Shown piece by piece: positions 10,453-55,269 of a stretch of 64,000 nucleotides of DNA; the stretch's first letter is position 1; each line of letters starts with the position of its first letter. This DNA comes from Actinomycetota bacterium (GTDB lineage: Bacteria > Actinomycetota > Geothermincolia > Fen-727 > JAQUKT01), in contig JAQUKT010000003.1 in the NCBI GenBank assembly GCA_028718945.1, forward strand, positions 624 through 64,623. Reading direction: 5' to 3'. The translations under genes were made by a program, and so were the position numbers. Under the pieces are notes generated by a model, which was given only the letters and a program-made list of their open reading frames with translations, had not been told where the DNA came from and did no database searches.

Positions 10453-10477
10453 GGTATAGAACGGCGTCGATTGTAAA

Positions 10478-15237: not shown

Positions 15238-15303
15238 CACATTTACCGACCCATTCTTAACAAGGCAGATAGAAAAATGTGTTATTGCAAGACCTGACCC
15301 CCC
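15217..15303. repeat. Complete palindromic REP-like unit: arm A, 30-bp loop, inverted arm A (perfect 27-29 bp inverted repeats)
   Basis: GGGGGTCAGGTCTTGCAATAACACATTT...AAATGTGTTATTGCAAGACCTGACCCCCC read directly; lies between the rel stop and the dtd start. Confidence 0.85.
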
Positions 15304-15403
15304 TTTGTGCGAAAAGGAGTGAAAAACGAAAGCAGTTGTTCAGAGGGTCGGGTGGTGCAGTGTAAGAATCCGGGGAAGTGAAGTCTCGAGAACCGGTCCC
15401 GGT

Positions 15404-32382: not shown

Positions 32383-32388
32383 GAGGGT

Positions 32389-32931
32389 TTGATTTTGAAC
32401 AACAAGTTCAAAATTCTTGTGACGGGACCATATAACTCGGGGAAGACAACATTCATAGGAACAATAAGCGAAATTCAGGTTGTATCTACCGAAAAAAAAT
32501 TGAGGAGTGCTCAAGGAACTACAACTGTGGCAATGGACTATGGAAGAATAACGTTGAGTGATGGAGATGTTATTCACCTTTATGGGACACCGGGTCAGGA
32601 AAGATTTGATTTCATGTGGAGAATTCTTTCAAGGGGGATTCTCGGTTACGTTGTGCTTGTTGATGGAAGCGATCCGGGGGCTTTCGCTCAAGTCTCAAAA
32701 ATTATTGATGTTTTTTCTAAGATGACTGATGCCCCGTACGTTTTATGTTTGACCCGTGCCGATCTTAGGGATTGCGTCTCTTCGGAAGAGGCAAGAAGGT
32801 TTATTAGGGCTTCCGCTGATGTAGATATCCTCGAATGCAATGCGAAGAGTAGAGAGGATGTGAGGGATGTCATAGTGTCTCTTCTTGAAAGAGTCATTGA
32901 GAGTATGGAGGCTAAGTGTTTCGTTCCATAG
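32389..32931 (+). CDS. Small Ras-like GTPase, COG2229 (CvnD/MglA-related) type
   Basis: P-loop GPYNSGKTT, TTVAMDYGRI, LYGTPGQERFDFMW and VVLVD match Roadblock-associated COG2229 GTPases. Confidence 0.75.
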   Translation: MILNNKFKILVTGPYNSGKTTFIGTISEIQVVSTEKKLRSAQGTTTVAMDYGRITLSDGDVIHLYGTPGQERFDFMWRILSRGILGYVVLVDGSDPGAFAQVSKIIDVFSKMTDAPYVLCLTRADLRDCVSSEEARRFIRASADVDILECNAKSREDVRDVIVSLLERVIESMEAKCFVP

Positions 32932-33076
32932 ATACGGTGTCGTATAGAGAGAGCGTCGAGGTGCCGCTCCCGCAAGGCGCGCGACCAACGCGTACTTCTG
33001 TTGTACTCGGAGGGAGCGGAACGCTCTTCTGTGGATAGATCGGCGATTGAATGCAACCGTATTTATGGAATGGAGC
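32914..33076 (-). repeat. ~160-bp GC-rich element with 18-bp terminal inverted repeats, copy 1 (minus orientation)
   Basis: About 90% identical to the reverse complement of 48908-49067; TIR CCGTTCCATAAATACGGT / ACCGTATCTATGGAACGG. Confidence 0.8.
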
Positions 33077-33131
33077 ACTAAGGAAAACAGGATGACTTCA
33101 CTTCACGCTTGAATTCATAAAGAGGTGGAAG

Positions 33132-33998
33132 ATGAGGATCGATGGAAATACGAGACTTGTTGGTATCATAGGCAATCCTTTAGAGCACACCCTGTCGCCC
33201 GTGATACATAATGCAGCTTTCGACTACATGGGATTGAACTGGTGCTATGTCCCGCTTCCAGTTGAACATGATGAGATCGAGAAAGCGCTTGAAGGTATCA
33301 AGGTTTTTAGGTTTGCGGGTGTAAATGTGACAATGCCGTTCAAGACCGCGGTTCTTCCTTTTCTTGACGAGGTTGCAATGTTTGCTGAATCCGTCGGTGC
33401 GGTGAACACTATATTATTCGATAAGGACAAACTCATAGGTTACAACACGGATGGGCGCGGTTTCTATACTGCTTTGAGCCGCGATTTAGGTTATGATGTA
33501 AGGGGAAAGAAGGTCTTGATTCTCGGTGCTGGAGGAGCCGCAAGGAGCGTAACTATTTCACTCGCTGTTGCTGGTTGCTCGAGAATGGTCATTGTGAATC
33601 GCTCGAGCGAAAGGGCGAGGAGTCTTAAGGAAATAATAAGAAGAAGTTCTTCTGATGTTGAGGTGCAGTGTCTCACTCCCGAGGAAGACTATGACGTTCT
33701 TCTTGCAGATTCGGATTTGATAATAAACGCGACACCTGTTTTTTCTTTCGGGAAGTCTGGGTTGAGAATTCCTGTTGCCATGCTGAACAAAAGTCAGGTT
33801 GTGTGTGACCTCAATTATTCATCATACTATTCCCCTCTCCTCGAGGAAGCAGAGGCACGAGGCGCTACCGTCATGGATGGGAAAGGAATGTTGCTTTATC
33901 AGGCAGCGACAGCTTTTGAGATATGGACGGGGCTCGAGGCACCCGTTGAAGTAATGAGAGTAGCGCTTCTGAGGGCGCTCGATGAAGCACGTATTTGA
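33132..33998 (+). CDS. aroE: Shikimate dehydrogenase AroE
   Basis: LVGIIGNPLEHTLSP...NVTMPFK...GAGGAARS. Confidence 0.88.
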   Translation: MRIDGNTRLVGIIGNPLEHTLSPVIHNAAFDYMGLNWCYVPLPVEHDEIEKALEGIKVFRFAGVNVTMPFKTAVLPFLDEVAMFAESVGAVNTILFDKDKLIGYNTDGRGFYTALSRDLGYDVRGKKVLILGAGGAARSVTISLAVAGCSRMVIVNRSSERARSLKEIIRRSSSDVEVQCLTPEEDYDVLLADSDLIINATPVFSFGKSGLRIPVAMLNKSQVVCDLNYSSYYSPLLEEAEARGATVMDGKGMLLYQAATAFEIWTGLEAPVEVMRVALLRALDEARI

Positions 33999-34034
33999 TG
34001 GATCATGAGCATTTAGGCATGGATTTCAGGTGAC

Positions 34035-35732
34035 ATGATGGAAAAACCAAGGCAGGAAAGGCTCGGTCAACTCCTTCTGGAAAAGAACCTGATAACTGAT
34101 GATCAATTGAAGGAGGCATTGTCCGAGCACGAAGATACAGGAAAATCACTTGGAAGGGTTCTTATAGAAAAGGGAATGCTTACCGAAGGCCAACTTACAA
34201 GCGTTCTTGCTGAGCAGATTGGAATCAAATATATAGACCTCGATTCGTACCAGATTGACCCGGCTGCGGCTGTCCTGGTAGATGGAAATCTTGCGAGAAG
34301 ATACTCGGTTATGCCAATCGAGTTCGAAGACGGGAAATTAGTGGTCGCAATGTCCGACCCCACAAACGTTTTCGCACTCGACGATCTTCGGATAATGACC
34401 GGGATGGAGATTTTGCCTGTTGTGAGCACGAGGGACGAAATAAATGCGGCTATAGATAGATACATACATACGGATGTTGACCTCGAGGAAGTTCTCGAGG
34501 AAGTGCCTCTTCCGGAGGAGGTTGAGGAAGGCGAAACGGAGGAATTGAAGGAGGCAGCTGGGGAAGCTCCGATTGTCAAGTATGTCAATCTGATAATTGA
34601 TGAGGCTGTGAATGAAAACGCGAGCGATGTTCACATAGAACCCGGGGAGAAGGATGTGCGAATAAGATATCGCGTTGACGGCGTTCTTCATGAGGTTCGA
34701 AAGTCACCGAAGAGAATTCACCCAGGGCTTGTATCTCGAATCAAAATTCTTGCGAATATGAATATCGCTGAAAGGAGAGTCCCACAAGATGGTCGCTTTG
34801 CGATGACGGTGGGTAGCAAATTCATTGACTTGAGAGTGGCGAGTTTGCCAACTGTTTACGGAGAGAAAATCGTGCTTCGAATCCTTGACAGATCATCAAT
34901 ACTTATGAAACTCGAAGACCTTGGGATGGAGCCCGAGCCGCTGGAGGTATTTAAAAACGCTTTCAGGAGGCCATACGGAACGGTTATTGTTACCGGACCA
35001 ACAGGGTGTGGAAAAACAACCACTCTTTATGCGGCGCTTGCCGAACTCAACAAGCGCGAGGTGAACGTTATCACTGTTGAAGATCCGGTTGAATATCAGA
35101 TGGCTGGTTGCAATCAGGTTCAGGTGAACGCGAAAGTCGGGCTCACTTTCGCTGCGAGTTTGAGGTCTATTCTGAGGTGCGACCCCGACATAGTGATGAT
35201 TGGCGAGGTGCGTGACCCTGAGAGTGCCAAGATGGCAATCGAGTCAGCGCTTACAGGACACATGGTTCTCTGTACGCTGCACACAAATGACGCTCCCGCG
35301 GCGATGACAAGAATGACCGAGATGGGCGTTGAACCCTTCCTGATTTCTTCTGCGGTGGATGCCGTGGTCAGCCAGAGGCTTGCAAGGAAGCTGTGCAAGA
35401 GGTGCAAGGAAGAGACGACATATGACGCGGAATATCTCGAGAGCGTAGGGTTTCCGGTTGATGAAATGAAAGATGAAAAGGTTGTGCTTTACAGGGCGAA
35501 AAAGGGAGGTTGTCCTTTCTGCGCCGGGACCGGTTTCAGGGGAAGAATAGGGGTTTTCGAGGTTCTGCATGTAGATGAGGAAATAGAAAAACTTGTAGTC
35601 AGTCTTGCCACCGCGCGTGAAATAGGAAATGAAGCGCGAAAGAGGGGAATGAAGACTCTGAGGCAGGATGGTTTTATAAAGGTCAAGAATGGGATAACTT
35701 CCATTGAGGAAATCCTGCGTGTTATCATGTAG
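34035..35732 (+). CDS. pilB: Type IV pilus assembly ATPase PilB (GspE family) with tandem MshEN-type N-terminal motifs
   Basis: LGQLLLEKNLITDDQLKEAL and SLGRVLIEKGMLTEGQL N-terminal motifs, Walker A GPTGCGKTTTL, tetracysteine CKRCK...CPFCAGTG. Confidence 0.92.
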   Translation: MMEKPRQERLGQLLLEKNLITDDQLKEALSEHEDTGKSLGRVLIEKGMLTEGQLTSVLAEQIGIKYIDLDSYQIDPAAAVLVDGNLARRYSVMPIEFEDGKLVVAMSDPTNVFALDDLRIMTGMEILPVVSTRDEINAAIDRYIHTDVDLEEVLEEVPLPEEVEEGETEELKEAAGEAPIVKYVNLIIDEAVNENASDVHIEPGEKDVRIRYRVDGVLHEVRKSPKRIHPGLVSRIKILANMNIAERRVPQDGRFAMTVGSKFIDLRVASLPTVYGEKIVLRILDRSSILMKLEDLGMEPEPLEVFKNAFRRPYGTVIVTGPTGCGKTTTLYAALAELNKREVNVITVEDPVEYQMAGCNQVQVNAKVGLTFAASLRSILRCDPDIVMIGEVRDPESAKMAIESALTGHMVLCTLHTNDAPAAMTRMTEMGVEPFLISSAVDAVVSQRLARKLCKRCKEETTYDAEYLESVGFPVDEMKDEKVVLYRAKKGGCPFCAGTGFRGRIGVFEVLHVDEEIEKLVVSLATAREIGNEARKRGMKTLRQDGFIKVKNGITSIEEILRVIM

Positions 35733-35761
35733 AAGGTTTTATTGAGAAGCGGAGGTGAAAT

Positions 35762-36838
35762 GTGGCAAAGCAAGCGCTAAAAATTGATATCAATGAACTC
35801 TTGGAGGAGGTCATAAAAAGGGGTGCTTCCGACCTTCACGTTACGGTGGGCGTACCGCCCGTTCTTCGGATAAACGGTGTTCTTCAGAGGATGGACCTTC
35901 CCAAACTGACGAGTAACGATACAAGGGAGATGGTATATTCTATTCTTACCGCTCGTCAGAGAGAACAACTCGAGAGCAACCTCGAGTTTGACCTTTCCTA
36001 CTCGGTTCCTGGTAGCGCTCGCTTTCGCGTCAATGCATTCTTTCAGAGGAACTCTGTCGGAGCGGCATTCAGGATTATTCCCTACCGTATCAAGACCATC
36101 GAGGAGTTGAAACTGCCGCTCGTGATAAAAGAGTTTGCTCGCCTCCCAAGGGGGTTTGTGCTTGTTACCGGACCAACCGGTCAGGGGAAATCCACCACTC
36201 TTGCGGCGATAATTGACCTCATAAACTCAATCCGTGAAGAGCATATCATAACCATTGAGGACCCCATAGAATTCTTGCATCTTCACAAAAAGTGTATTGT
36301 CAACCAGCGGGAGGTCGGCTCTGATACGCACTCGTTCGCAAATGCCTTGAAATATGCCTTGCGTCAGGACCCTGATGTAATTCTCGTTGGTGAGATGAGA
36401 GACCTCGAGACGATTTCAACGGCTCTTACTGCCGCCGAGACAGGACACCTTGTCTTTGCGACTCTCCATACACAGGATTCTCCCCAGAGTATTGATCGAA
36501 TTGTTGATGTTTTCCCAACCTACCAGCAGTCGCAGGTACGGCTGCAGCTCGCGTCAACGATTCAGGCGATTGTTTCCCAGCAACTCGTTCCCACAAAGGA
36601 CAGACGCTCGAGAATCCCTGCGGTGGAGGTTATGATAGCGACTTCAGCAATCAGAAACATGATAAGGGATGCAAGGGTTCATCAGATATATTCCGCAATG
36701 CAGGCAGGCGGACAGCTCAGGATGCAGACAATGGACGCGTCTCTGGCAGCGCTATATCGGGCAGGCCAGATAGTATATGAGACGGGGCTTGCCAGGGCGC
36801 ACAACAAGGATGATTTCAGAAGATTGGTAGGTAGATAG
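35762..36838 (+). CDS. pilT: Twitching motility ATPase PilT
   Basis: ASDLHVTVGVPP, GPTGQGKSTT, AIRNMIRD; 358 aa. Confidence 0.9.
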   Translation: MAKQALKIDINELLEEVIKRGASDLHVTVGVPPVLRINGVLQRMDLPKLTSNDTREMVYSILTARQREQLESNLEFDLSYSVPGSARFRVNAFFQRNSVGAAFRIIPYRIKTIEELKLPLVIKEFARLPRGFVLVTGPTGQGKSTTLAAIIDLINSIREEHIITIEDPIEFLHLHKKCIVNQREVGSDTHSFANALKYALRQDPDVILVGEMRDLETISTALTAAETGHLVFATLHTQDSPQSIDRIVDVFPTYQQSQVRLQLASTIQAIVSQQLVPTKDRRSRIPAVEVMIATSAIRNMIRDARVHQIYSAMQAGGQLRMQTMDASLAALYRAGQIVYETGLARAHNKDDFRRLVGR

Positions 36839-36959
36839 ATAGGAATACTCATAAAATTTTGCTGCGTGGATTTTTTGAAATTTTTGTTACATTTGTAAAG
36901 AATTGATGTTATTATTAAGATCAAGGTAAAGAGTTCGATGATTTCGGGAGGTATGAGAG

Positions 36960-38177
36960 TTGGCAGAGTCTTTTACCTACACTGTAAGAGATAAGGCAGG
37001 CAGGGAAGTAACCGGCTCGCTCGAGGCAGAGTCAGCGGAAGTTCTTGCCGCGAAGCTCCGCCAAATGGGATATTTTGTTGTTTCGGTTGAACAGGTTAGA
37101 AAATCAATCGCGAAAAAGGAAATACACATCTTCGGCGTAAAGGTGAAAAGCGATGATTTGACCATATTCACCCGCCAGTTTGCCACCATGATAAACGCCG
37201 GTCTTCCACTCATAAAGTGCTTGAGCATACTTGCCCAGCAGACGGAATCATCAGCTCTTGCTGATATCATCATGGATTGCCAGAAAGAAGTGGAAGCGGG
37301 TCGTTCGTTATCAGAAGCTCTTGCCAAGCATCCGGAGGCATTTACTGACCTTTATGTGAGCATGGTTCGCGCGGGTGAACTTGGTGGTATGCTTGATGAT
37401 GTTCTCCTGAGAGTTGCAAATCAGCTCGAGCGTGACGCTGAAATCAAACGCAAGATAAAGTCAGCGATGACCTATCCAGTTGCCGTTCTTGGAATTTCCG
37501 TTCTGCTACTTACAATTATGATTATTTTTGTTGTCCCGAAATTTTCTTCAATGTTTGAGAACCTCGGCGCGAAACTACCGGGGTTCACACAGATGCTCGT
37601 TAATGTAAGCCACTTCGTGGGTGGATATGGAGGCTTGATAATACTTGCCTTCATTATTGGCTTTGTGATTGTCTATCGCAGATTCAAGGCGACCGAGCGG
37701 GGGAAGCTCACTTTAGATAGAATCAAACTACACCTTCCAGTTGTTGGAAATCTCTTTCACAAGACAGCAATGTCAAAGTTCTCGAGAACTCTTGGAACTC
37801 TGATTTCATCGGGTGTTCCGATACTCGGTGCTCTCGAGATAACGGGAGAAACAACAGGGAATATGGTTATTACCAAGGCGCTGGAGGAAGTGAGGTCTGG
37901 TGTCAAGGAAGGCGAAACAATAGCCGCTCCACTTGCTCAGGCTGAAGTCTTCCCGCCGATGGTCACCCAGATGATAGCGATTGGTGAGGAAACAGGAGCG
38001 CTTGATGTTATGCTCAGCAAGGTTAGCGATTTCTATGACAGTGAGGTGAACACGGCGGTTGACGGTCTCACATCAATGCTCGAGCCAGTACTCATAGTTT
38101 TCCTTGGTGGCACGGTTGGAACCGTTGTTGTTGCTCTATATATGCCGATATTCAGTATTGTCACCAAGATCAAATAG
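36960..38177 (+). CDS. pilC: Type IV pilus platform protein PilC (GspF family)
   Basis: Two GspF-type repeats with three TM segments; TTG start with SD GGGAGG. Confidence 0.9.
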   Translation: MAESFTYTVRDKAGREVTGSLEAESAEVLAAKLRQMGYFVVSVEQVRKSIAKKEIHIFGVKVKSDDLTIFTRQFATMINAGLPLIKCLSILAQQTESSALADIIMDCQKEVEAGRSLSEALAKHPEAFTDLYVSMVRAGELGGMLDDVLLRVANQLERDAEIKRKIKSAMTYPVAVLGISVLLLTIMIIFVVPKFSSMFENLGAKLPGFTQMLVNVSHFVGGYGGLIILAFIIGFVIVYRRFKATERGKLTLDRIKLHLPVVGNLFHKTAMSKFSRTLGTLISSGVPILGALEITGETTGNMVITKALEEVRSGVKEGETIAAPLAQAEVFPPMVTQMIAIGEETGALDVMLSKVSDFYDSEVNTAVDGLTSMLEPVLIVFLGGTVGTVVVALYMPIFSIVTKIK

Positions 38178-38251
38178 TGTTAAAGTGTTTTCGACTATTT
38201 GCCGAATATTAGAAAGAAATAAAGTTAGGATTGAAAGGAGGTGAAAGTCAA

Positions 38252-38596
38252 ATGAAGGTTATTCGCAGTAATAAAGGCTTCACGCTTATTGAACTTATGA
38301 TTGTAGTTCTTATCATTGCCATCCTGGTTGCGATAGCTGTGCCTGTCTATATAAACACTCAGGAAAACGCAAAGAAGAGAGCCTGTCAGGACAATGTGAG
38401 AACGGTGGACGGGCAGATACAGGCGTATCAGGCAAGTGAGCCAAATCAATCATATCCAGCCAATCTTGCCGCTCTTGTCACTGGTAAGTTCCTGAAAAGT
38501 ACTCCAATGTGCTCGAAGTCGGCGAGTGGAACATACGCTTGGATAACTGGTACTCCCCCTTACATATCCTGCACAGTCCATCCTCCGGTAGATTGA
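38252..38596 (+). CDS. pilA: Type IV (major) pilin PilA
   Basis: Class III signal MKVIRSNKG|FTLIELMIVVLIIAIL with Glu+5; SD AAAGGAGG. Confidence 0.85.
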   Translation: MKVIRSNKGFTLIELMIVVLIIAILVAIAVPVYINTQENAKKRACQDNVRTVDGQIQAYQASEPNQSYPANLAALVTGKFLKSTPMCSKSASGTYAWITGTPPYISCTVHPPVD

Positions 38597-38621
38597 TTAT
38601 TTTTGGTTCAGGCTTGAAGCT

Positions 38622-38652
38622 GGAGTCCTCAGATTTGAGGGCTCCTTTTTCA
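38622..38652. terminator. Bidirectional rho-independent terminator between pilA (+) and the convergent DUF2723 gene (-)
   Basis: Hairpin GGAGTCCTCA-gattt-GAGGGCTCC followed by TTTTT. Confidence 0.6.
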
Positions 38653-38654
38653 TA

Positions 38655-40886
38655 TTACTTTAATATCTCAAGCTGTTTTCTCGATTCAGAGGCAAGGCTT
38701 CCCGAGGGTTCGATTTCTATTACCGCTTCGAATTCCTTTTTTGCTTCTCTCATACGACCGAGCGGCATATATGATTTTCCAAGAAGATATCTCAAGCGCG
38801 CGTTCTTTGAATCAATACTGACGCATTCTTCAAAAACGCGGGCCGCTTCCTCGTATTGCTCCGACATGAGGTAGAGCTCTCCCTTTATTATTCTTGCCTC
38901 GACTTCATCGGGATTGAATGCTATGTATTTATCGAGTTCAATGAGGGCGTCTCCGATGTGACCAAGCCTCATATATGCTTCCACCATAGCTGGTGAGGCA
39001 AAATCCGAATCTATTCGAGTCGCGCCTTTTAGTTTTCTCAAAGTTTCTCTGTATCGACTTTCCGCATTGAGGCACTCCCCCCAGAGTTCATAGAGACCAC
39101 TCATGGTTGCGCATCCATAAAGAGTTGGCACATACATTTTGTCTTCGAATTCGCTTTTGATTTCCTCATAAAGCAGTGATGCTCTTTTATATTCTTTTTT
39201 CGAATAGTGGTAGTTTGCGAGAAGCGCGCGCGGCATTAGCACTGCTTCTCTTGCGTCACTATCCATGTAGGGGACTCCTTTTCTTATGGAAGTGTTTGCT
39301 TTCCTTTCCGGTATCTCCGCGTCCATTGGAACCACTCTCAGGGCGTATCCAAGCCAGTATTCCTTTGCGTCTTTGAATACACAGAGGGAATGTGTCGAAT
39401 ATACGGGTTTCTCCCGGAAGTTCTTGAGCGCGACTTCTGTCAAATTATTCTGTGTTTTTGTTTCCTGAGATGGTTCGAGAGGTTTGGCAAGCAAATCAAG
39501 CCCCTCGAACCCGAATGCTCCGATTGATTCAGCGTTTATCACCCTTATATCGGTGCGAATTCCTTCCACGATTTGCATGTAACGGCATGGAAAAAAAACA
39601 TTGTCACTTTCAGTGAGGACAATTGATTCCGGTTCCGTAATTTCAAGTATTCTTCTTGCCATATCCTCGGCAAAATGGTAATTGCTCTTGTCAACTTTTT
39701 CGTAATGTATGATTCCCGCTGGAACAATTGTAAGAAGCGCAACGGCAAAACCAACTGAAAGAGACGCAATTTCAACAATCCGGTCCTGGTTCCTTGACCA
39801 TGAGCGAAGGACTCTGCCAAAATAAGCAACACCAATACCAATCCAGATTGAAAAGATCAGATAACTTGGATAATAAAAGTGCGCACGGAGAACCGGTTCT
39901 ATTTGTGTGTATGTCATTACTGGTAGAAGTGAAAGAAGGAAAAGCAGAACTAAGAACAGTGGAATCTTCTTTGACCGCTTCCTGAAAGAAAAAACAACAC
40001 CAAAAAGTCCAATCCAGGCAACATAGGGAAATTCCGTATTCAAGGTTCCAAAGTACCTCGAGAATCTGCCTGCAAAGTAGGCTGAAGGATATGTGAAAAG
40101 TCCGCCTCGCTGGTAATAGAGAGTTATATGTCTGAACCACCTGAGAAGCGTCGAGGGATCTCCGTAGTTATAGCCCGGACCCCTGAATGCGGCTACAGGC
40201 TGGTAGATGTATGGAAGCGCTCCAAGAATCATGAAAACAATTATTCTAAGCAAATTCTTAGGAGCGAGAATTGATTTCCAGTCTGTATCAACTATGAAGA
40301 AGATGAATGCGGGAAGCAGAAAAACAATGGTTATGTGGTTTGCCAGAGCGAGCCCGTATATGAATGCCATGAGGCAGAGAGTGTTCGTTGCTTTCTTTTC
40401 CCCTCCCTCATAAAAAAGCCTTTCCCATCTCAAAGTCAACAATATGAGGAGAGCTATGAAAAAAGCGTTCAGGCTGTACGTTTCAGGTATGACGGATTGA
40501 TACCAGAAAGTATATGAAAATGAATAGACGAGTGCGGCGACAAGACTACCCACCTTGCTTCTTGTTATTCTCAAAACTATGTGATAAATCAGGCAGGCGG
40601 TTAATGCGGCAAATATTCCAGAATATATGCTTGTCCTGAAAGCAAGGGTTCCAAAAGGAAAAATCCATGAAAATATTTTCGCGGTCAATAGAAACAACGG
40701 ATAACCAGGTCCATGCACATTTCCCATGGTTGCTATTCCCATGAGGAAGTCACCAGAATCAGCGAATGTGACGGTTCTTGCCGCGCAGGTTATATGAGTC
40801 AGAAGCACAAGAAAAAAGATAAATATTGATATCAAAAAATCGGGGTTTTTGACCGTTCCTTTTTGGATTGATATTTCTTTTTCCAT
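38655..40886 (-). CDS. DUF2723/GT-C (family 39-like) membrane glycosyltransferase-like protein with C-terminal TPR repeats (TMTC-like)
   Basis: About 11 TM helices with FADSGDF loop motif, then TPR-like C-terminal third; 743 aa. Confidence 0.65.
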   Translation of the reverse strand: MEKEISIQKGTVKNPDFLISIFIFFLVLLTHITCAARTVTFADSGDFLMGIATMGNVHGPGYPLFLLTAKIFSWIFPFGTLAFRTSIYSGIFAALTACLIYHIVLRITRSKVGSLVAALVYSFSYTFWYQSVIPETYSLNAFFIALLILLTLRWERLFYEGGEKKATNTLCLMAFIYGLALANHITIVFLLPAFIFFIVDTDWKSILAPKNLLRIIVFMILGALPYIYQPVAAFRGPGYNYGDPSTLLRWFRHITLYYQRGGLFTYPSAYFAGRFSRYFGTLNTEFPYVAWIGLFGVVFSFRKRSKKIPLFLVLLFLLSLLPVMTYTQIEPVLRAHFYYPSYLIFSIWIGIGVAYFGRVLRSWSRNQDRIVEIASLSVGFAVALLTIVPAGIIHYEKVDKSNYHFAEDMARRILEITEPESIVLTESDNVFFPCRYMQIVEGIRTDIRVINAESIGAFGFEGLDLLAKPLEPSQETKTQNNLTEVALKNFREKPVYSTHSLCVFKDAKEYWLGYALRVVPMDAEIPERKANTSIRKGVPYMDSDAREAVLMPRALLANYHYSKKEYKRASLLYEEIKSEFEDKMYVPTLYGCATMSGLYELWGECLNAESRYRETLRKLKGATRIDSDFASPAMVEAYMRLGHIGDALIELDKYIAFNPDEVEARIIKGELYLMSEQYEEAARVFEECVSIDSKNARLRYLLGKSYMPLGRMREAKKEFEAVIEIEPSGSLASESRKQLEILK

Positions 40887-40935
40887 GGCTAAATTATAGA
40901 CTTGGTTTTCAGGTTCTTCAAAAAATGGAGGCAGA

Positions 40936-41844: not shown

Positions 41845-41992
41845 GATTCATACTGGACCCTAAACTCTGAAGACAGAATCATATATAGAAAACTTTCGGC
41901 TCGTTCCTTTGAAACGTTTTACAAACCGATAAAATTTTATTAAACTGATAATAACTGCTATAGTTTGTTGAAAAAGTTGACGAATTAAAGTA

Positions 41993-42028
41993 TTGACAAC
42001 TTAGGTTGAAATGATACATAATTTTAGT
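41993..42028 (+). promoter_or_regulatory. Sigma70-like promoter candidate (TTGACA, 17/18-nt spacer, CATAAT) followed by palindrome CTCAAGTTGAG
   Basis: In 265-nt AT-rich intergenic region upstream of the small HTH gene and pilMNO; perfect palindrome at ~42036-42046 with a half-site repeat GTCTCAAC at ~42053. Confidence 0.4.
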
Positions 42029-42109
42029 CTCAAGTTGAGATAGATTGAAACAGTCTCAACCAGAGAATAAGATTTAAGCTCTTCGCCTTTACGATGGAAG
42101 TGAGCAAAA

Positions 42110-42277
42110 TTGAGCAAAAAGTTACTTACAGTTAATGAAGTGGCTCAGATACTTCGCGTTTCGAATATGACCGTATATCGCCTTGTTAAAAGCAAACAGA
42201 TTCCAGCCATTAAGGTTGGAAAGAATTATCGCATAAAAGAAAGCGATGTGGATGACTACTTGAAAAGGGGCTCATGA
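42110..42277 (+). CDS. Small (55 aa) helix-turn-helix DNA-binding protein, excisionase/MerR-like family
   Basis: TTG-initiated ORF LSKKLLTVNEVAQILRVSNMTVYRLVKSKQIPAIKVGKNYRIKESDVDDYL. Below the 60-aa cut-off, so absent from the ORF track. Confidence 0.5.
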   Translation: MSKKLLTVNEVAQILRVSNMTVYRLVKSKQIPAIKVGKNYRIKESDVDDYLKRGS

Positions 42278-42309
42278 TAGGTCAAGACAGGATGTTTTAG
42301 GTGATGTGA

Positions 42310-43371
42310 TTGGCAAGGACAGGAACTTCTATAGGAGTGGACATAAGCACCGGGTCGGTTAAGGTTGCCGAGGTGAATATAACGAGGGCAGAGCCGGTTC
42401 TGAACAAGTTGGGCATAATAATGCTTCCCGAAGGCGTAGTAAGGGATGGAGAGATCGAAGACCCGGCAAGTATTGCAGGTTACCTGAAGGAACTCTGGAA
42501 GACAAATCGATTCTCAAGACGGAAGGTCATTTTGGGTGTTTCAAATCAGAAAGTCATAGTAAGGTCAATGGACCTTCCATACATGGCTGAAGAGGAACTC
42601 GATAGTGCTGTTAGATATCAGGTGCAGGAGTTCATACCGATACCAATAGAAGATGCGATCATCGACTTTGAGGTCGTTGACGAATTCATGACCGGTGAGG
42701 AAGAAAGGATGCAGACAGTTCTCTTGGCGGCAGCTCACCGCGAAATGATTCAGAACTTTGTTGATGCTCTGCTTGGCGCCGGTCTTAATCCTGTGGCAGT
42801 TGAACTAAAAGCATTCGCGATGACTCGTTCCCTTCTAAAAAGAGAGTATCAGTTTCTCGAGGAGGAGGGCGAGGCGCCTGGAAGCGTTTGCCTCATAAAC
42901 ATTGGATCTGGAATATCCAATATTTGTGTTGTCAAGGAACAAACTCCCAGGTTCGTCAGGATGCTTATGAGGGGTGGCGATTACTTCACAAAATTGCTTT
43001 CAGACAAGTTGAAGCTATCGCCTGTTGATGCCGAGGAGATAAAGCAAGGAAGAAGCACTGATAAGGAAGCGAATGCCCTTCTCCAGCGCGAAATCCAGGC
43101 ATTCGTTGGGGAGATTCGCAGGTCGTTGGAATTCTACATTTCCCAGACTCAGGAGAGAGATTTGAAGAAGGTCATAATTTCTGGTAGCGGCTCGAGAATA
43201 ATCAATCTGCCGCTCGAGTTGAACAGGGCTTTGAGGCTTCCGATAGAGATAGGTCATCCACTTCAGAATGTTCAACTTGGAAAACTTCCCTACACTCCCG
43301 AGGAACTTGCTGAAATGGAAGCTTCTATTGCCGTATGTGTGGGACTTGCTTTGAGGGACTTGGAGGAATGA
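42310..43371 (+). CDS. pilM: Type IV pilus assembly protein PilM (actin-like ATPase)
   Basis: SIGVDISTGSVKVAEV N-terminus, FtsA/actin fold length; TTG start. Confidence 0.88.
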   Translation: MARTGTSIGVDISTGSVKVAEVNITRAEPVLNKLGIIMLPEGVVRDGEIEDPASIAGYLKELWKTNRFSRRKVILGVSNQKVIVRSMDLPYMAEEELDSAVRYQVQEFIPIPIEDAIIDFEVVDEFMTGEEERMQTVLLAAAHREMIQNFVDALLGAGLNPVAVELKAFAMTRSLLKREYQFLEEEGEAPGSVCLINIGSGISNICVVKEQTPRFVRMLMRGGDYFTKLLSDKLKLSPVDAEEIKQGRSTDKEANALLQREIQAFVGEIRRSLEFYISQTQERDLKKVIISGSGSRIINLPLELNRALRLPIEIGHPLQNVQLGKLPYTPEELAEMEASIAVCVGLALRDLEE

Positions 43372-43372
43372 A

Positions 43373-44119
43373 TTGACAAGGATAAACCTCCTGCCACCGG
43401 AAAGGGTAAAGGAAAAAAGGCGGGTAGCCCCGGCGAGATCATACGTCTGGCTTTTGATAGTGCTTCCACTCATTGCTATTGTAATTGTTGTTTTTTGGTT
43501 CATGAGTATGAATGGAAAGATTTCTGAGAAAACAAAGTTGAGGGATGAAGCAAATCAGGAGCTTTCCGAATGGCAGGCAAAGGTCAGCAGTTACAAGAAA
43601 TACGAGGAAATGGAAACCGGAATCAAGACCAAAACTACGAACGCATTGGGTGCTCTTAAGGGAAGGGTTTACTGGGCGAGAATCCTAAACGAAGTTGCGA
43701 TAATGTGTCCTACGGATATATGGCTTACATCACTTACTGGGACATCCCAGCAGGGGCAATCTGGGACGGTTCAGTTCGCGGGTTATGCCCTTCAATGTTC
43801 GAGCAGAATAGTTCCTGGTAGGTCATATCCTTATCTTCCCGACTACAGACCCATTGCAAGCTGGCTTGAGAGGATGGCACAAATAGCGGAGTTCCAGAAG
43901 ATATGGTTATCTAATGCTGCTCCGACTCAGGTGGGGGTAAATCCAGCAGTGGTAGCCACAACAACAGAAACCACGACAACTCAAACGACAGGGTACTGGG
44001 TCATCAGTTTCGGTTCTACTGCGACTCTCAACATGAATACCGCTATTGTTGGTCCACAATCAAGCTCACCTTCCTCACCCGCTCCCGCCACGCCTCCAAC
44101 GGGGGGTGGTGCAGAGTGA
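43373..44119 (+). CDS. pilN: Type IV pilus assembly protein PilN with Thr/Pro-rich C-terminal extension
   Basis: MTRINLLPPER + single TM + coiled coil. Confidence 0.8.
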   Translation: MTRINLLPPERVKEKRRVAPARSYVWLLIVLPLIAIVIVVFWFMSMNGKISEKTKLRDEANQELSEWQAKVSSYKKYEEMETGIKTKTTNALGALKGRVYWARILNEVAIMCPTDIWLTSLTGTSQQGQSGTVQFAGYALQCSSRIVPGRSYPYLPDYRPIASWLERMAQIAEFQKIWLSNAAPTQVGVNPAVVATTTETTTTQTTGYWVISFGSTATLNMNTAIVGPQSSSPSSPAPATPPTGGGAE

Positions 44120-44781
44120 TGAAGAGACCGGCAGTCGCGCTCCTCATAGGAATTTTCCTGTTTGTCGTTGTTCTTGGGGCGGGCTATTTTCTGCTTGTTG
44201 GTCCAAAAAACAAGGATATCGATAAGCTTGCAAAGGAAATAGAGGATATTGACACAAAGGTAAATGAAGAAAAAAGCAAGTACTCAAAACTTATTGACAT
44301 AAAGAATCGCCTTCCTGAGTATGAAGCAAAGCTCGCTGCTGTTGAAGCAATGATACCGGCCGAGCCTGAGCTTCCTTCACTTATAAGGAACATACAGGCG
44401 GCAGCTGACCCTGGAACCGGCGCGGGGATTCCATGGGTTTCTTTTACGCCCGGTGAAGTCGCTGCTGGACAGGCGGCAGCCGGACAACCTGCAGCTGGAC
44501 AGAAGACAGGAGCAGGGTTCTCTTCATACAGTCTTTCGATATCATGCGCTGGATGCTATTCGCAGGTAGTTGATTTCATTTACCGGCTTGAACGTATGCA
44601 AAGGGCAATTGTTATCGACGGTGTTACTCTCACACCAACAAGCGCGATTTTCAACACGAGCTACAGTCAGAATCTTGGACTTGTTAGTTGCCAGTTGACC
44701 GCAAAAACGTTTACATTTGCTGCGCCTGCTGGGGGGGCTGCGACAACCGCTCCAGCGGCTACGCCGGAGACTAAAAAGTAA
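44116..44781 (+). CDS. pilO: Type IV pilus assembly protein PilO
   Basis: N-terminal TM, coiled coil, position after pilN with 4-nt overlap. Confidence 0.75.
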   Translation: MMKRPAVALLIGIFLFVVVLGAGYFLLVGPKNKDIDKLAKEIEDIDTKVNEEKSKYSKLIDIKNRLPEYEAKLAAVEAMIPAEPELPSLIRNIQAAADPGTGAGIPWVSFTPGEVAAGQAAAGQPAAGQKTGAGFSSYSLSISCAGCYSQVVDFIYRLERMQRAIVIDGVTLTPTSAIFNTSYSQNLGLVSCQLTAKTFTFAAPAGGAATTAPAATPETKK

Positions 44782-44797
44782 TATCGGATGGTGAGAG

Positions 44798-45400
44798 ATG
44801 CCTGAGAGTATCAAGAAAATGAAGCCAAAAAAAAGTGATTCAATGTCAAAAAGAAAGAAGAACATAATTCTTGTTTCTTCGGTTTTGATTGCTGTTCTCG
44901 CACTCGGTCTTCTATTTATTGGCTCAGGGGGAGAGAAAAACAGGGGCAATATTACTGCTCAGACAAGTGCCCCCCAGACTTCCGGAGCCCAGACGCCTGC
45001 TACAACTCAGGAAACCAATGTGGAAGATATAATAGTTCCTCCGCTTTCGATATACAGGCGAAGGAATCCATTCAAACCGCTTGTGAATATGGAAGCCCCC
45101 GAGGCCGCCGCTACAACTCCTACAGGTACGGGCGGAGTTGTTGTTATTCCTCCGGAGATTGAGGCGGGTCTTTCAAATCCAGTTGTATCGCGCGCCATTA
45201 CTCTCGGGGGCATAACAAGGGAAAAGGGAAAAACATACGCGAGCATTCGTGTAAGTGATTCGGTTTTCGATAAAGTCGGAGTCGGCGATGTATTTGCGGA
45301 TAATTATAAATTGATTTCTCTTGGCAATGATGGGACTGCGACCATTTTGTATGGTGATGAGCGGTTTACGATTTCTGTTGGTCAGTCAGTCTATTGGTAA
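44798..45400 (+). CDS. Membrane-anchored hypothetical protein, PilP-like position in pilus operon
   Basis: Lys-rich N-terminus + TM + Thr/Ala-rich linker + C-terminal beta-rich domain; no family recognised. Confidence 0.4.
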   Translation: MPESIKKMKPKKSDSMSKRKKNIILVSSVLIAVLALGLLFIGSGGEKNRGNITAQTSAPQTSGAQTPATTQETNVEDIIVPPLSIYRRRNPFKPLVNMEAPEAAATTPTGTGGVVVIPPEIEAGLSNPVVSRAITLGGITREKGKTYASIRVSDSVFDKVGVGDVFADNYKLISLGNDGTATILYGDERFTISVGQSVYW

Positions 45401-45409
45401 TTGGTAATT

Positions 45410-45433
45410 GGGGTCAGACCTTCATTTTTGGTG
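45410..45433 (-). repeat. REP-like repeat arm B, minus orientation (GGGGTCAGACCTTCATTTTTGGTG on + strand)
   Basis: Reverse complement of arm B at 9903 and 55246. Confidence 0.75.
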
Positions 45434-45520
45434 TTTTTCCATCTAATCGGCGCGTTTTGCTATAGCGTTAGTGTTATCTCGAAGATTTTTTTGAGAAGAC
45501 CTTGAATGTTCAAGGGAGTT

Positions 45521-45556
45521 GGGCGGCACCATTTGCGGGTGCCGCAACTTTTTGTT
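45521..45556 (+). terminator. Rho-independent terminator after the pilus operon
   Basis: Perfect 8-bp stem GCGGCACC-atttgc-GGTGCCGC followed by AACTTTTTGTT. Confidence 0.65.
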
Positions 45557-45579
45557 GAATTTCTGTTTGAGGAGATAAG

Positions 45580-46752
45580 ATGAGACTGAGATTTCTTTCC
45601 GCTGGAGAGTCCCATGGTCAGAGAATCTGCGTGATTGTGGAAGGATTGCCTGCCGGCCTTGCGGTTAATCCGGATGAGATAAATCGCGAGCTTTCAAGAA
45701 GACAGGGTGGATACGGCAGGGGCGGAAGAATGGAGATAGAAAAAGACAGAGCGTTGATTGTTTCTGGTGTGAGGTACGGGGTTACCACCGGGGCTCCGGT
45801 CTCTGTTGAAATAGAAAATCTTGATTACAAGAACTGGGCTGATGTAATGGCAGTCGAGGAGCCCCGAGAGAAAGCAAAGCCGGTTACCAGACCAAGACCG
45901 GGTCACGTAGACCTCGCTGGAATGCTCAAAACCGCATCCATGGACGCAAGAGATGTTATGGAACGAGCGAGCGCAAGGGAAACCGCCTCAAGGGTCGCTG
46001 CCGGTTCGATTGCCAAACTTCTGCTTTCTGAAATTGGCGTTCGTGTCATGGGGATGGTTGTTCAGATAGGAAGCGTGAAGGTAAGCGGTGGAGAAGCAGA
46101 ACTCCATTCGTTTGAGAGGGCGTTTTCCGACCCGCTTCTTTGTTGCGATCCAGCAGTTTCAAAGAACATGATGGAAGAGATAGATAGCGCCAGGGAAGAT
46201 GGCGATACGCTCGGTGGCGTCTTCGAGGTTGCCGCGTTCGGAGTCGTCCCAGGTCTTGGCTCGCATACACAATGGGATAGAAGGCTTGACGGAAAACTTG
46301 CTTGTGCGCTTATGTCGATACCTGGAATAAAGGGAGTTGAGATAGGAGGTGGGTTTTCACTTTCCGCTTCAAAAGGCTCATCCGTTCACGATGAGATTAT
46401 ACTCCGCGAAGATGAATGTATCGGGCGCAGGACAAATCGCGCTGGTGGAATAGAGGCGGGAATAACGAATGGGGAAACCATTTTGGTTCGTGCCGCAATG
46501 AAGCCCATACCAACACTTCAAAAGCCGCTAAAAACGGTTGACCTTGCTACCATGAAAGAGGCATCTGCCTCGGTCGAAAGGTCTGATATTTGTGCGGTTC
46601 CATCAGCCTGTGTTATTGGCGAAGCGGTTGTCGCGCTGACTCTTGCTGATGCCGCACTTGAAAAGTTCGGTGGAGATTCATTGAAGGAATTCAAGCGAAA
46701 CTATGAGGGGTATGTCGAACAGATATCGCGTTTCTGGAAAATCGAAAGGTGA
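45580..46752 (+). CDS. aroC: Chorismate synthase AroC
   Basis: AGESHG, GGRSSARET-like motifs; 390 aa. Confidence 0.92.
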   Translation: MRLRFLSAGESHGQRICVIVEGLPAGLAVNPDEINRELSRRQGGYGRGGRMEIEKDRALIVSGVRYGVTTGAPVSVEIENLDYKNWADVMAVEEPREKAKPVTRPRPGHVDLAGMLKTASMDARDVMERASARETASRVAAGSIAKLLLSEIGVRVMGMVVQIGSVKVSGGEAELHSFERAFSDPLLCCDPAVSKNMMEEIDSAREDGDTLGGVFEVAAFGVVPGLGSHTQWDRRLDGKLACALMSIPGIKGVEIGGGFSLSASKGSSVHDEIILREDECIGRRTNRAGGIEAGITNGETILVRAAMKPIPTLQKPLKTVDLATMKEASASVERSDICAVPSACVIGEAVVALTLADAALEKFGGDSLKEFKRNYEGYVEQISRFWKIER

Positions 46753-47303
46753 CCCCCGTGAAAACAAACATAGTTCTCTGTGGATTCATGGCATCCGGCA
46801 AGACGACCGTTGGAAGGATTCTTTCGCAGTTGACTGGAAAAGGATTCGTTGATACCGATTCGATAATCGAAGAAAGAATGGGAATGAACATAAGGCAAAT
46901 ATTCTCCGAATTGGGGGAGAGATATTTCCGCGGTCTCGAGCGCGACATTGTTATCGAGGCATCGGGCAGGAAAAACATTGTGATTGCCCTCGGGGGCGGG
47001 GCAGTTCTTGACCCCGAAAATGTGAAGGACATTAGAAAAGAGGGCATTGTCTATCTTCTCAAGGTAAGTCCAGAGGAAGCTGTGAGAAGGTCAAAGGAAA
47101 GCCTCGAGGAGAGACCTCTGATGGGCGACCAGGCGGAGGATGCCGAAATTCTCATGCGCGCAAGGGAGGATGCGTACCTGAGGGCTGCCGATGTTGTGAT
47201 AGAAACAGACGACCGAAAACCAGAAGAACTCGCGAAACAGATTGCAAATGATTTCAAGGATAAGACACAAACAAATTCTTCCCTGCAAAACCCGGGATTA
47301 TGA
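46749..47303 (+). CDS. aroK: Shikimate kinase AroK
   Basis: Walker A GFMASGKTTVG, overlaps aroC stop. Confidence 0.85.
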   Translation: MTPVKTNIVLCGFMASGKTTVGRILSQLTGKGFVDTDSIIEERMGMNIRQIFSELGERYFRGLERDIVIEASGRKNIVIALGGGAVLDPENVKDIRKEGIVYLLKVSPEEAVRRSKESLEERPLMGDQAEDAEILMRAREDAYLRAADVVIETDDRKPEELAKQIANDFKDKTQTNSSLQNPGL

Positions 47304-47337
47304 TTGAAACTAACCCCAAAAAGGAAAGGCAATTCAA

Positions 47338-48429
47338 GTGGAACGCGCTTCTGTTACTGTTAGATTAAAAAGAGGACCATCGAGGATATTCATTGGAAGA
47401 GGCATCCTCGGGCAAGCGGGTAAACTTGCAGGGGGAAATAAGGGGAAGAAGGCATTTGTAATAACGGATTCAAACATTGAACCACTATACCTCGACGAAC
47501 TCCTCGATGGATTAGGCTCTTGTGGCATCTCGACATCCGTAAAGATTATCAAGCCGGGGGAGCAATCAAAGGACCTTTCGGTTGCAGAAGAAATTCTTTC
47601 TCTCATGATAGGAGAAAATCTCTCGAGGGACGACATGGTGGTTGCCTTGGGAGGCGGAGTTGTTGGAGACCTTTCAGGGTTTGTCGCCTCAATATACAAA
47701 AGGGGAATTTCTCTTCTTGCTGTTCCAACCACGCTCATTGCTCAGGTAGATTCTTCCATCGGGGGGAAAACCGCGGTGAATCTCAAAGAGGGCAAAAACA
47801 TGGTTGGAACTTTTCACCAACCCCTTTGCGTGATTTGTGATGTCAAAACTATTTTGACTCTTCCCGAAAGAGAATTCCGTTCGGGGATTGCCGAGGTTGT
47901 GAAATACTATTTTTTGAGCAAAAGTTTTCCCGACTTGAGGGGAATTGGAAAGGAATTACTTTCGAGAAAAGAGGATGCGCTTCTTGATATTGTTCACGCG
48001 TCTGCTTCTCTAAAGGCAAGAGTTGTCTCAAAGGATGAGTTTGACAGGAAGGGGTTGCGAGTTTTTCTAAATTATGGGCATACCCTCGGTCATGCTCTCG
48101 AGGCTGCTTGCGGCTACGGTGATGAATACACCCATGGCGAGGCTATATCTATCGGGATGGTTTTTGCGGCAATGCTTTCCGAAGAGCACCGAATCGCACA
48201 AAAAGGACTTGTGGATGAACACAGGGATATGATTTCTCCCTTTGGTCTTCCGGTGAATCCTCATGAACCCTTCCCTTCATTTGAGGAGTTATTATCATTC
48301 ATGGAAAGGGACAAGAAGAACAAGGATGAGATAGACATGGTTCTTTTGAGGAAGCGCGCAAGACCGTTACTTTCAAATGGAATCGAGGCTGAAAAACTGA
48401 AACTCGCATACGAACGTTTGTTGATGTAG
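47338..48429 (+). CDS. aroB: 3-dehydroquinate synthase AroB
   Basis: GGGVVGDLSGFVASIYKRGI, NYGHTLGHALE. Confidence 0.88.
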   Translation: MERASVTVRLKRGPSRIFIGRGILGQAGKLAGGNKGKKAFVITDSNIEPLYLDELLDGLGSCGISTSVKIIKPGEQSKDLSVAEEILSLMIGENLSRDDMVVALGGGVVGDLSGFVASIYKRGISLLAVPTTLIAQVDSSIGGKTAVNLKEGKNMVGTFHQPLCVICDVKTILTLPEREFRSGIAEVVKYYFLSKSFPDLRGIGKELLSRKEDALLDIVHASASLKARVVSKDEFDRKGLRVFLNYGHTLGHALEAACGYGDEYTHGEAISIGMVFAAMLSEEHRIAQKGLVDEHRDMISPFGLPVNPHEPFPSFEELLSFMERDKKNKDEIDMVLLRKRARPLLSNGIEAEKLKLAYERLLM

Positions 48430-48456
48430 AAAAGGGATCAGGCAGAGGAGGCTTTT

Positions 48457-48897
48457 TTGGAGAGGATACTCATCATAAATGGTCCGAATCTGAATCTCTT
48501 GGGAGAGAGAGACCGAAAAGCCTACGGTCAAAAGACGCTCGAGGAGATAAATACTTTAATCAAAGGAGTGGCGGACGAACTTTCCGTGGAGGTGGAGTTT
48601 TTTCAGTCGAATCATGAGGGAGACCTTATTGACAAGATTCACGAGGAGAGAAAAAAAGCGGATGGAATAATAATCAATCCAGGCGCGCTAACGCACTACA
48701 GTTTCGCTCTTCATGACGCGCTCGAAGCGGTTGGCTTGCCGACGGTCGAGGTGCACATAAGTGATATAGACAAAAGGGAAGAGTGGCGCAGGCATTCGGT
48801 CATAACGCCGGTCGCCTGGAAGGTAATCAAAGGAAAAGGATTCGAAGGATACCTTGTTGCTTTGCGCGAACTGGTAAATCATATTCGCGCGCAGTAG
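48457..48897 (+). CDS. aroQ: Type II 3-dehydroquinate dehydratase AroQ
   Basis: ILIINGPNLNLLGERD...QSNHEG...IINPGALTHYS. Confidence 0.88.
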   Translation: MERILIINGPNLNLLGERDRKAYGQKTLEEINTLIKGVADELSVEVEFFQSNHEGDLIDKIHEERKKADGIIINPGALTHYSFALHDALEAVGLPTVEVHISDIDKREEWRRHSVITPVAWKVIKGKGFEGYLVALRELVNHIRAQ

Positions 48898-48907
48898 GCT
48901 TGCTGCC

Positions 48908-49067
48908 CCGTTCCATAAATACGGTTGCATTCTATCGCCGATCCATCCACAAAAGAGCGTTCCGTTCCCTCCGAGTACAACAGAAGTACGCGTCGGTCGT
49001 GCGCCTTGCGAAAGCGGCGCCTCGACGCTCTTGGTACGATACCGTATCTATGGAACGGAACACTTGA
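48908..49067 (+). repeat. ~160-bp GC-rich TIR element, copy 2 (plus orientation)
   Basis: See copy 1 at 32914-33076; ORFs predicted through both copies give similar peptides only because the DNA is repeated. Confidence 0.8.
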
Positions 49068-49076
49068 GTTTAGGAA

Positions 49077-55110: not shown

Positions 55111-55245
55111 GATGACCTTTCTTGACTTACATTTGAAATGTTAACATTCTGCTGGGACATTTATTTTTCAACTTTCTTCTGTTTTCCTCCGAATACTCGA
55201 ACAAAGGCAAATAAAGGCAAAAAAGAGTATAATTCAAAAGAGAAA

Positions 55246-55269
55246 CACCAAAAATGAAGGTCTGACCCC
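55246..55269 (+). repeat. REP-like repeat arm B
   Basis: CACCAAAAATGAAGGTCTGACCCCC is identical to 9903-9925. Confidence 0.75.

Follow-up and report, generated by a model that had tools for sequence, protein, structure and literature searches.

The stretch of DNA analysed here (the window) comprises 64,000 nucleotides of contig JAQUKT010000003.1, from the assembly GCA_028718945.1 of an Actinomycetota bacterium placed in the Geothermincolia. It contains a segment of type IV pilus and shikimate pathway genes that is bracketed by two inverted copies of a short, non-coding repeat, termed copy A and copy B, which are the subject of this report. The enclosed genes comprise aroE, two T2SSE ATPases, a T2SSF protein, a pilin, a TMEM260/TPR protein, a prepilin peptidase, PilM and the genes following it, and then chorismate synthase, shikimate kinase, DHQ synthase and a type II dehydroquinase (DHQase II), in agreement with the gene list of a preliminary description of this sequence. 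The two copies are separated by 15.8 kb, and their G+C content is 55%, compared to 46% for the window.

Alignment of positions 32900-33090 (minus strand) with 48895-49080 (plus strand) in MAFFT gave 90% column identity over about 165 nt, and a repeat finder returned the inverted arms 32950-33082/48899-49031 (133 nt, 90%) and 32914-32951/49028-49065. A pair of inverted copies of about 160 bp and about 90% identity, as originally described, is thus confirmed by both methods. A profile of the family detects exactly two copies in the window (E about 3e-37 each), a result far beyond chance. The boundaries, initially placed at 32914-33076 and 48908-49067, were refined by reading the ends against 98 relatives. 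Copy A (GTG...CAC, 163 bp) extends from 32916 to 33078 on the plus strand and is flanked by TAA on its left (32913-32915, within cTAAg, as read from the sequence) and on its right (33079-33081). Its terminal stem consists of a 5′ arm, GTGTTTCGTTCCATAGATACGGT (32916-32938, plus strand), and a 3′ arm, ACCGTATTTATGGAATGGAGCAC (33056-33078, plus strand), which form 23 pairs including 4 G·U. Copy B (161 bp) extends from 48903 to 49063 on the minus strand. It is flanked by TTG on the plus strand at 48900-48902, 3 nt past the aroQ stop codon, and at 49064-49066, 10 nt from the stop codon of a DUF5667 gene (49077-51074, minus strand) that converges with aroQ across copy B. The terminal motif CCGTTCCATAAATACGGT...ACCGTATCTATGGAACGG noticed earlier is present, but the terminal inverted repeats (TIRs) measure 23 bp (22-23 pairs including G·U) instead of 18. 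The internal self-complementarity (AGAGCGT/ACGCTCT and GTAC-AACAGAA-GTAC) is also found in the sequence.

The ends of the element are best understood by comparing the copies of its family on the better-folding strand (the F strand, which is plus for copy A and minus for copy B). Oriented in this way, the copies read 5′ C-TWA-GTG-N8-CATAAATACGG ... CCGTATTTATG-N8-CAC-TWA-G 3′. The TIRs are 23 bp long with GTG...CAC ends, and the helix that they form (helix 1) is 98.3% paired across 98 copies. Where TWA is present on both sides, the same W occurs on both in 59 of 61 copies (32 TAA/TAA, 27 TTA/TTA and 2 discordant). An extension of the stem would give complementary bases, and because the two W are identical instead, the flank is a direct repeat, that is, a target-site duplication (TSD). 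All 98 copies have the inner G and the inner C (98/98 each), but the outer C and G are found in only 77 and 80 of them, which defines the element as GTG...CAC, the duplication as 3 bp and the C...G as a target preference. Two other partitions of the same bases, a 5-bp duplication (CTWAG) and a 4-bp duplication with TG...CA ends, were rejected on these counts. Both copies in the window follow the duplication rule, copy A with TAA/TAA and copy B with CAA/CAA on the F strand (TTG/TTG on the plus strand); the CAA target of copy B is non-canonical, yet it is duplicated.

Sister families of the element, described below, show a TA duplication instead, most copies having TA within CTAG at their flanks. 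Of 102 copies, 43 have both TAs intact (TA/TA), and 35 of these 43 are in a C-TA-G context; many further copies have TA on one side only, and a few have TTA/TTA. A 3-bp TWA duplication characterizes PIF/Harbinger elements, and the related NuwaII group has been described as targeting C|TNA|G (PMC4482050). IS630 is characterized by TA duplication with a preference for CTAG (Tenzen and Ohtsubo, 1991; cited in PMC2170065). The TA/TWA duplication at palindromic CTAG/CTWAG sites therefore matches the signature of the IS5/PIF-Harbinger or the IS630/Tc1-mariner type (PMC4482050; PMC2170065), and the insertion chemistry would resemble that of a DDE transposase that cuts a palindromic, TA-centered target with a stagger of 2-3 nt.

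The element is not confined to this genome. More than 200 copies were fetched, from metagenome-assembled genomes (MAGs) of several phyla and from soil or sediment metagenomes. A scan with the exact pattern CATARATACGG-N105-135-CCGTATYTATG, using one genome per species, matched at least 115 loci, with about 102 clear relatives among the matches listed and often several copies per genome; these represent the first family. The host MAGs are labeled as Deltaproteobacteria/Deferrimicrobia, Thermodesulfobacteriota, Desulfobacterota-like “Deltaproteobacteria,” Acidobacteriota, Nitrospirota, Actinomycetota and others. The locus L061 (349-2861) of a Vicinamibacterales MAG, CBDANA010000008.1, holds five copies of two sister families, with CATAAATACGG-type and AGCAGCCCGTGGTGAAAGTCC-type termini, within 2.5 kb. 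Among them are copies that combine a matching interior with other termini, which led to a metagenome scan with a pattern restricted to the core. When the first family was left out, this core-only pattern matched at least 120 further loci in metagenome contigs. In the sister families the core is shared, while the terminal stems have diverged but are still alignable and paired, e.g., GTGTAGCGTCTCGCAAATAGCCTG..., GCAGCCCGTGGTGCAAGTCC... and GGGTCTGCGGCGAAACAAACAG..., so that across families the internal core is better conserved than the termini. The family profile marks 257 places in the 1.5 Mb of fetched DNA. Two copies thus lie in the window, and hundreds of family loci elsewhere.

Comparison with databases returned no known family. 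Rfam 15 gave no match for the element when the window and 24 loci with family members were searched, at either curated or permissive thresholds (E<=1-10); a weak Ref68 match at 32841-32945 lies mostly outside the element and far below threshold. The consensus had no blastn match among PLSDB plasmids and INPHARED phages, a pattern scan of IMG/VR gave 0 matches, and the searchable literature holds no description of such a family in these phyla. The copies apparently belong to a large, undescribed superfamily of elements in uncultured bacteria of several phyla.

Element lengths range from 161 to 168 bp and are spread over all residues modulo 3 (41/30/27). No reading frame is therefore conserved, and the element is non-coding. 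A search for an autonomous partner considered orphan half-sites, orphan arms, halves split around an open reading frame (ORF) and recurrent neighboring proteins. In the fetched loci, no terminus was left as an orphan next to an ORF, partial matches were deletion derivatives, internal duplications or nested insertions, and no protein family recurs beside the copies. The only split case flanks a HAD hydrolase and was rejected as a partner, being a duplication/deletion derivative.

Several loci illustrate the variety of forms. On the metagenome contig Ga0180014_1000066 (L161, 3578-10940), 6-7 copies occupy nearly every intergenic gap of a 12-kb stretch immediately downstream of a 23S-5S rRNA end, and their sequence is close to the subfamily of the window. 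One of them carries an internal partial duplication (9707-9966) and a short derivative has no apical hairpin (10822-10940). A family member is nested inside another at L205 (2920-3340). At L036 (431-608), family termini enclose an unrelated interior and the flanks are discordant (TTA vs. TAA), and at L226 (2405-2460) a mini-derivative of about 55 nt consists of the terminal stem only.

In about 40% of the copies of the first family, the stop codon of a neighboring gene coincides with the duplication, as judged from crude ORF calls (20 upstream genes in sense and 21 downstream genes in antisense orientation). This coincidence arises from the target: whichever strand is read, both CTAAG and CTTAG contain a TAA or a TAG, and the stop is regained through the duplication. 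Such a pentamer is tolerated at few places in a G+C-rich genome, stop codons being one of them; the duplicated TAA, or TA+G, is often the stop codon of the neighbor, whose gene is left intact. The copies lie at unrelated intergenic sites, and their orientation is mixed with respect to the flanking genes (26 same/same, 25 opposite/opposite, 17 convergent and 13 divergent) and to the local GC skew (78 vs. 93, p = 0.28). An orientation bias, which could have pointed to a host function at the RNA level or to insertion into single-stranded DNA (ssDNA) of the IS200/IS605 kind, was thus sought and found in neither comparison.

The insertion of copy A can be followed in the small Ras/MglA-like GTPase gene that precedes aroE (32389-32931, plus strand). 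The duplication plus the element supply the stop codon of this gene (TAG, 32929-32931) and the five codons before it, and the encoded tail, KCFVP followed by the stop, is read from 32914 onward, whereas homologs end in ...EALEKAG. Because tail and stop are read from the duplication and the element, copy A must have inserted into the 3′ end of the GTPase gene. In relatives with a conserved gene order, the GTPase gene and aroE are 48 and 94 nt apart, and no copy of the element occurs in about 20 kb; the spacer in the window is 200 nt, of which element and duplication account for 166 nt and the remainder for 34 nt. Two relatives without the element share the order PatA_N/DUF4388, GTPase, aroE, pilB, pilT and pilC, in the same orientation. 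The nearest homologs of the GTPase are about 60% identical and come from Geothermincolia-like MAGs, and look-ups of the exact protein for close relatives returned the same sample only, with no population-level empty site.

Both copies are predicted to fold into very stable structures, and in each case one strand folds better than the other. As RNA, copy A reaches -73.7 kcal/mol on the plus strand (z -5.2) and -54.2 kcal/mol on the minus strand; copy B reaches -68.7 kcal/mol on the minus strand (z -4.6) and -56.9 kcal/mol on the plus strand. The difference between the strands results from G·U pairs in the 22-23-bp terminal stem. For 98 aligned copies, RNAalifold gives a rod-like structure of 50 pairs, and in 33 of these both partners have changed. 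The rod comprises the 23-bp terminal stem, three more helices set apart by internal loops of small size, one internal loop rich in purines and an apical hairpin. Overall, 97.2% of the cells are paired, compared to 30-43% when the partner columns are slid by 1-3 positions; 544 cells are doubly changed, and none of 500 shuffles reaches any of the observed measures. Several unpaired motifs are nearly invariant (CCGAG, GCAAGGCG, GCAACG, GGAUGCA and CGAAUGC), and a G·U pair at columns 61/144 is conserved in 87 of 98 copies. The Rfam search and RNA folding suggested earlier therefore yielded no Rfam family but a stable fold with covariation support, and the view of the element as MITE-like (resembling miniature inverted-repeat transposable elements) or structured is borne out by its TIRs, its TSDs, its many dispersed copies and this fold.

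One subfamily departs from the common architecture. In other subfamilies, the two strands of the purine-rich central loop read GACYGAGG and GNGARGGAG. In the Acidobacteria subfamily (alignment A2, columns ~80-92 and ~112-125), these strands have traded places, 5′ side for 3′ side, with the helices next to them preserved; the arrangement resembles a flipped asymmetric loop motif. Columns 87/117 covary strongly (UA 32, CG 31, GC 28).

Covariation alone could stem from co-evolving, protein-binding TIR ends and is not proof that a single strand folds. The distribution of the mismatches is more informative, as cells of the G·U type number 310 vs. 18 of the A·C type, and 14 columns hold at least three G·U while none does so for A·C. 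When only distinct outer-arm pairs are counted, 62 in all, the excess persists (G·U 51 vs. A·C 9), at several positions and in different subfamilies. When reverse-complemented, the alignment reaches only -33 kcal/mol, compared to -68 kcal/mol for the F strand. In the independent set of sister families, G·U again exceeds A·C (164 vs. 63), with a stem finder that treats both alike. Recognition of duplex DNA predicts that G·U and A·C are symmetric, so that the asymmetry indicates that the spreading lineages tolerated wobble pairs on the F strand only. Moreover, since the orientation of the copies is random, selection (or a mutation bias specific to one strand) must operate during the life cycle of the element itself, on RNA or ssDNA.

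Taken together, the two repeats are very probably independent insertions of a non-autonomous, non-coding, MITE-like transposable element that belongs to a large superfamily. The features of a MITE are present, including TIRs, a TSD, small size without coding capacity, dispersed copies and empty orthologous sites; what is missing is the cognate transposase. The element inserts at palindromic C|TWA|G sites and duplicates TWA; its sister families use TA in CTAG. Mobilization would most likely occur in trans, by a DDE transposase of the IS5/PIF-Harbinger or IS630/Tc1-mariner kind. The mismatch pattern suggests that, in proliferating lineages, selection has favored the folding of one particular strand on its own, in single-stranded form (RNA or ssDNA). 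Such folding could be a step in propagation, or it could belong to an RNA made by the element or its parent.

Some points weigh against this interpretation. No autonomous partner, i.e., a transposase between the same termini, was present in the approximately 1.5 Mb of fetched loci, ends more than 600 bp apart in whole genomes being beyond the reach of the search, and the enzyme family is deduced solely from the target and the duplication signature. The relatives with an empty site are distant (~55-60% protein identity) and do not represent a population polymorphism. The gene calls behind the orientation and stop-codon statistics are crude heuristics based on ORFs and on G+C content at third codon positions (GC3). 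Finally, cut-and-paste transposition of double-stranded DNA (dsDNA) explains neither the G·U asymmetry on one strand nor the conservation of the core over that of the termini, and something beyond a textbook MITE is therefore involved. In a bolder extension of the transposon model, the conserved hairpin core on one strand would be an RNA or ssDNA part that the element needs for its transposition, such as a folded donor strand or a scaffold of RNA that the transposase recognizes. We regard this extension as rather unlikely; if true, it would define a new class of TIR/TSD elements dependent on a structured nucleic acid and distributed across several phyla, rather than a passive deletion derivative of an insertion sequence (IS).

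Among the closest known systems, the plant MITEs Tourist (PIF/Harbinger, TWA) and Stowaway (Tc1/mariner, TA), with their bacterial kin in the IS5 and IS630 families of insertion sequences, are likewise small, non-coding and abundant, with TIRs, hairpins and a TWA (3 bp) or TA (2 bp) duplication at a palindromic target (PMC4482050; PMC2170065). In contrast, the termini of the present element (GTG...AAATA...) have not been matched to a known IS and no cognate transposase was found, and its interior is conserved and covaries across phyla and terminus families, with a strand-asymmetric fold. The bcr1 repeat of the Bacillus cereus group is also a non-autonomous mobile repeat, of about 155 bp, with short flanking direct repeats and an RNA structure kept by compensatory changes (PMC3184786). 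However, the direct repeats of bcr1 are 5 bp long, its cruciform consists of two stem-loops and it is confined to a single genus group, whereas the present element has a TWA/TA duplication, a single rod-like hairpin and a cross-phylum distribution; the two sequences are unrelated. Correia/NEMIS in Neisseria and ERIC in Enterobacteria are MITEs of 100-160 bp with TIRs and TA-containing flanks, which are intergenic, co-transcribed and form long hairpins in the transcripts (PMC3184786). They differ in being lineage-restricted and unrelated in sequence, and Correia carries promoters and IHF sites, whereas the element described here has no promoter-like sites and occurs in several phyla of uncultured bacteria. 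The element has no sequence relationship to any of these analogs.

Two further groups were considered as possible homes for the element and rejected. Chunjie, from Geobacter uraniireducens, is likewise a deltaproteobacterial MITE with a stable fold (178-235 bp; PMC3184786, PMC10969869), but its direct repeats are 9 bp and its TIRs 21 bp long, and its sequence is A+T-rich, as opposed to the 3-bp TSD and the G+C-rich sequence of the present family. The REP/REPIN repeats (mobilized by RAYT) and the palindromes derived from IS200/IS605 are also hairpin repeats in which strand-specific, single-strand folding is preserved. These have neither a TSD nor long TIRs, carry GTAG/CGTC tags, insert into ssDNA and show a replication-strand bias; the present element has a TSD, 23-bp TIRs, a palindromic target of the dsDNA kind and no GC-skew bias.

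In a rival view, mobility is not the primary property of the element. It could instead be a structured small RNA (sRNA) or ssDNA module with a function of its own, such as a scaffold or guide for transposition in cis or in trans, or a riboregulator beneficial to the host, for which the TIR/TSD mobility would be only a vehicle. This would account for a core that is kept across families with diverged termini, for the near-invariant unpaired motifs together with the 33 compensatory pairs and the conserved G·U at 61/144, for the large excess of G·U over A·C on one strand, and for the Acidobacteria loop strands that change sides while the helices persist. However, no promoter-like or terminator-like site above chance is present in the element. 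Moreover, the terminal stem starts at the first base, so that a full-length RNA would need an outside promoter, and yet the copies show no preferred orientation. No Rfam family matches, the copy at L036 combines the same termini with an unrelated interior, and mini-derivatives dispense with most of the core. We consider a primary sRNA or ssDNA function unlikely. A role of the hairpins mainly as transcription terminators, insulators or mRNA-stabilizing 3′ structures of the flanking operons, part of which had been suggested initially, might be read from the very stable folds (-57 to -74 kcal/mol), from the fraction of family copies that abut a stop codon (~40%) and from the position of copy B between convergent genes. 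Yet no U tract follows the terminal stem, and a terminator scan found nothing beyond chance; the orientation is random although one strand alone folds well, the target CTWAG, which itself contains TAA/TAG, accounts for the location at stop codons, and relatives do without the element at the same site. Such a role is very unlikely.

The least probable explanation, which we hardly credit, is that the two inverted copies are a functional pair that inverts or excises the 16-kb pilus/shikimate segment, i.e., the phase variation proposed in the preliminary description. Recombination between A and B is physically possible, as inverted repeats of 160 bp with about 90% identity lie 15.8 kb apart, but nothing indicates that it occurs or is used. 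Had recombination between A and B inverted the segment, the two flanks of each copy would now come from different sites; instead, each copy has its own matched duplication (TAA/TAA and TTG/TTG), and there is no sign of an exchange. The comparison with related genomes points the same way, as relatives without the element show the PatA_N-GTPase-aroE-pilB-pilT-pilC genes in the same order and orientation. No recombinase was seen among the called genes of the segment or the four proteins beside the copies (DUF4388/PatA_N, small GTPase, ECF sigma factor and DUF5667), the segment holds essential genes for aromatic amino acids, and the family is found singly at hundreds of unrelated loci. The copies flank the pilus and shikimate genes by coincidence. 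No promoter-like site above chance occurs in either copy, and local effects of the two insertions are plausibly incidental: a hairpin of -74 kcal/mol would form in the GTPase-aroE transcript, and hairpins would form a few nucleotides past the points where the convergent genes aroQ and DUF5667 stop.

The interpretation as independent insertions of a mobile element removes the pilus phase-variation cassette as unsupported, and explains two assembly breakpoints as well as the remodeled C-terminus of the GTPase. It also documents a very abundant mobile family in uncultured soil and sediment bacteria. Annotation of this family would prevent false calls of sRNAs, CRISPR-like repeats or operon structure, would help to explain contig breaks in MAGs and would provide insertion markers for strain tracking. 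A strand-specific, covarying core that outlasts the change of termini is unexpected in an ordinary MITE and makes a case that single-strand folding matters for the spread of TIR/TSD elements.

The assembly breakpoints are seen in the Logan contigs of SRR22315506, which break about 30 nt inside copies A and B (L001 starts at window position ~33050 and L237 ends at ~48933). Contig ends inside both copies are expected for a repeat in a k-mer graph. The window copies have no identical shared 31-mers at the contig ends, which suggests that further copies or variants are present in the SRR22315506 sample.

The neighborhood of copy A shows a conserved gene string of its own. At 29608-33998 in the window and at 5750-11500 in three loci of Geothermincolia-like MAGs (L238, L240 and L241), two Roadblock/LC7 (MglB-like) genes, PatA_N/DUF4388 and the small Ras-like GTPase are followed by aroE and the type IV pilus genes. 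The Roadblock-GTPase string, common to the window and these MAGs, has the appearance of a polarity module of the MglA/MglB type, with a link to the pilus locus.

The window contains other repeats. A 27-nt motif, GGGGTCAGGTCTTGCAATAACACATTT, is present in seven copies in the 64 kb, always outside long ORFs, at 2578, 9842, 15218, 62221 and 63117 (plus strand) and at 15285 and 51832 (minus strand). Two inverted copies at 15214-15308 pair almost perfectly into a hairpin about 95 nt long (-56 kcal/mol). This motif may represent another small repeat family or a shared regulatory site. A 30-nt sequence, GGGGTCAGACCTTCATTTTTGGTGTTTTTC, occurs at 45410-45439 and, inverted and 97% identical, at 55240-55269; its start, GGGGTCAG, is common with the 27-nt motif. 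Direct repeats at the start of the window, 30-86/336-392 (72%) and 220-290/526-596 (90%), share a spacing of 306 nt, which suggests a tandem duplication of about 102 codons and probably reflects a repeated protein domain.

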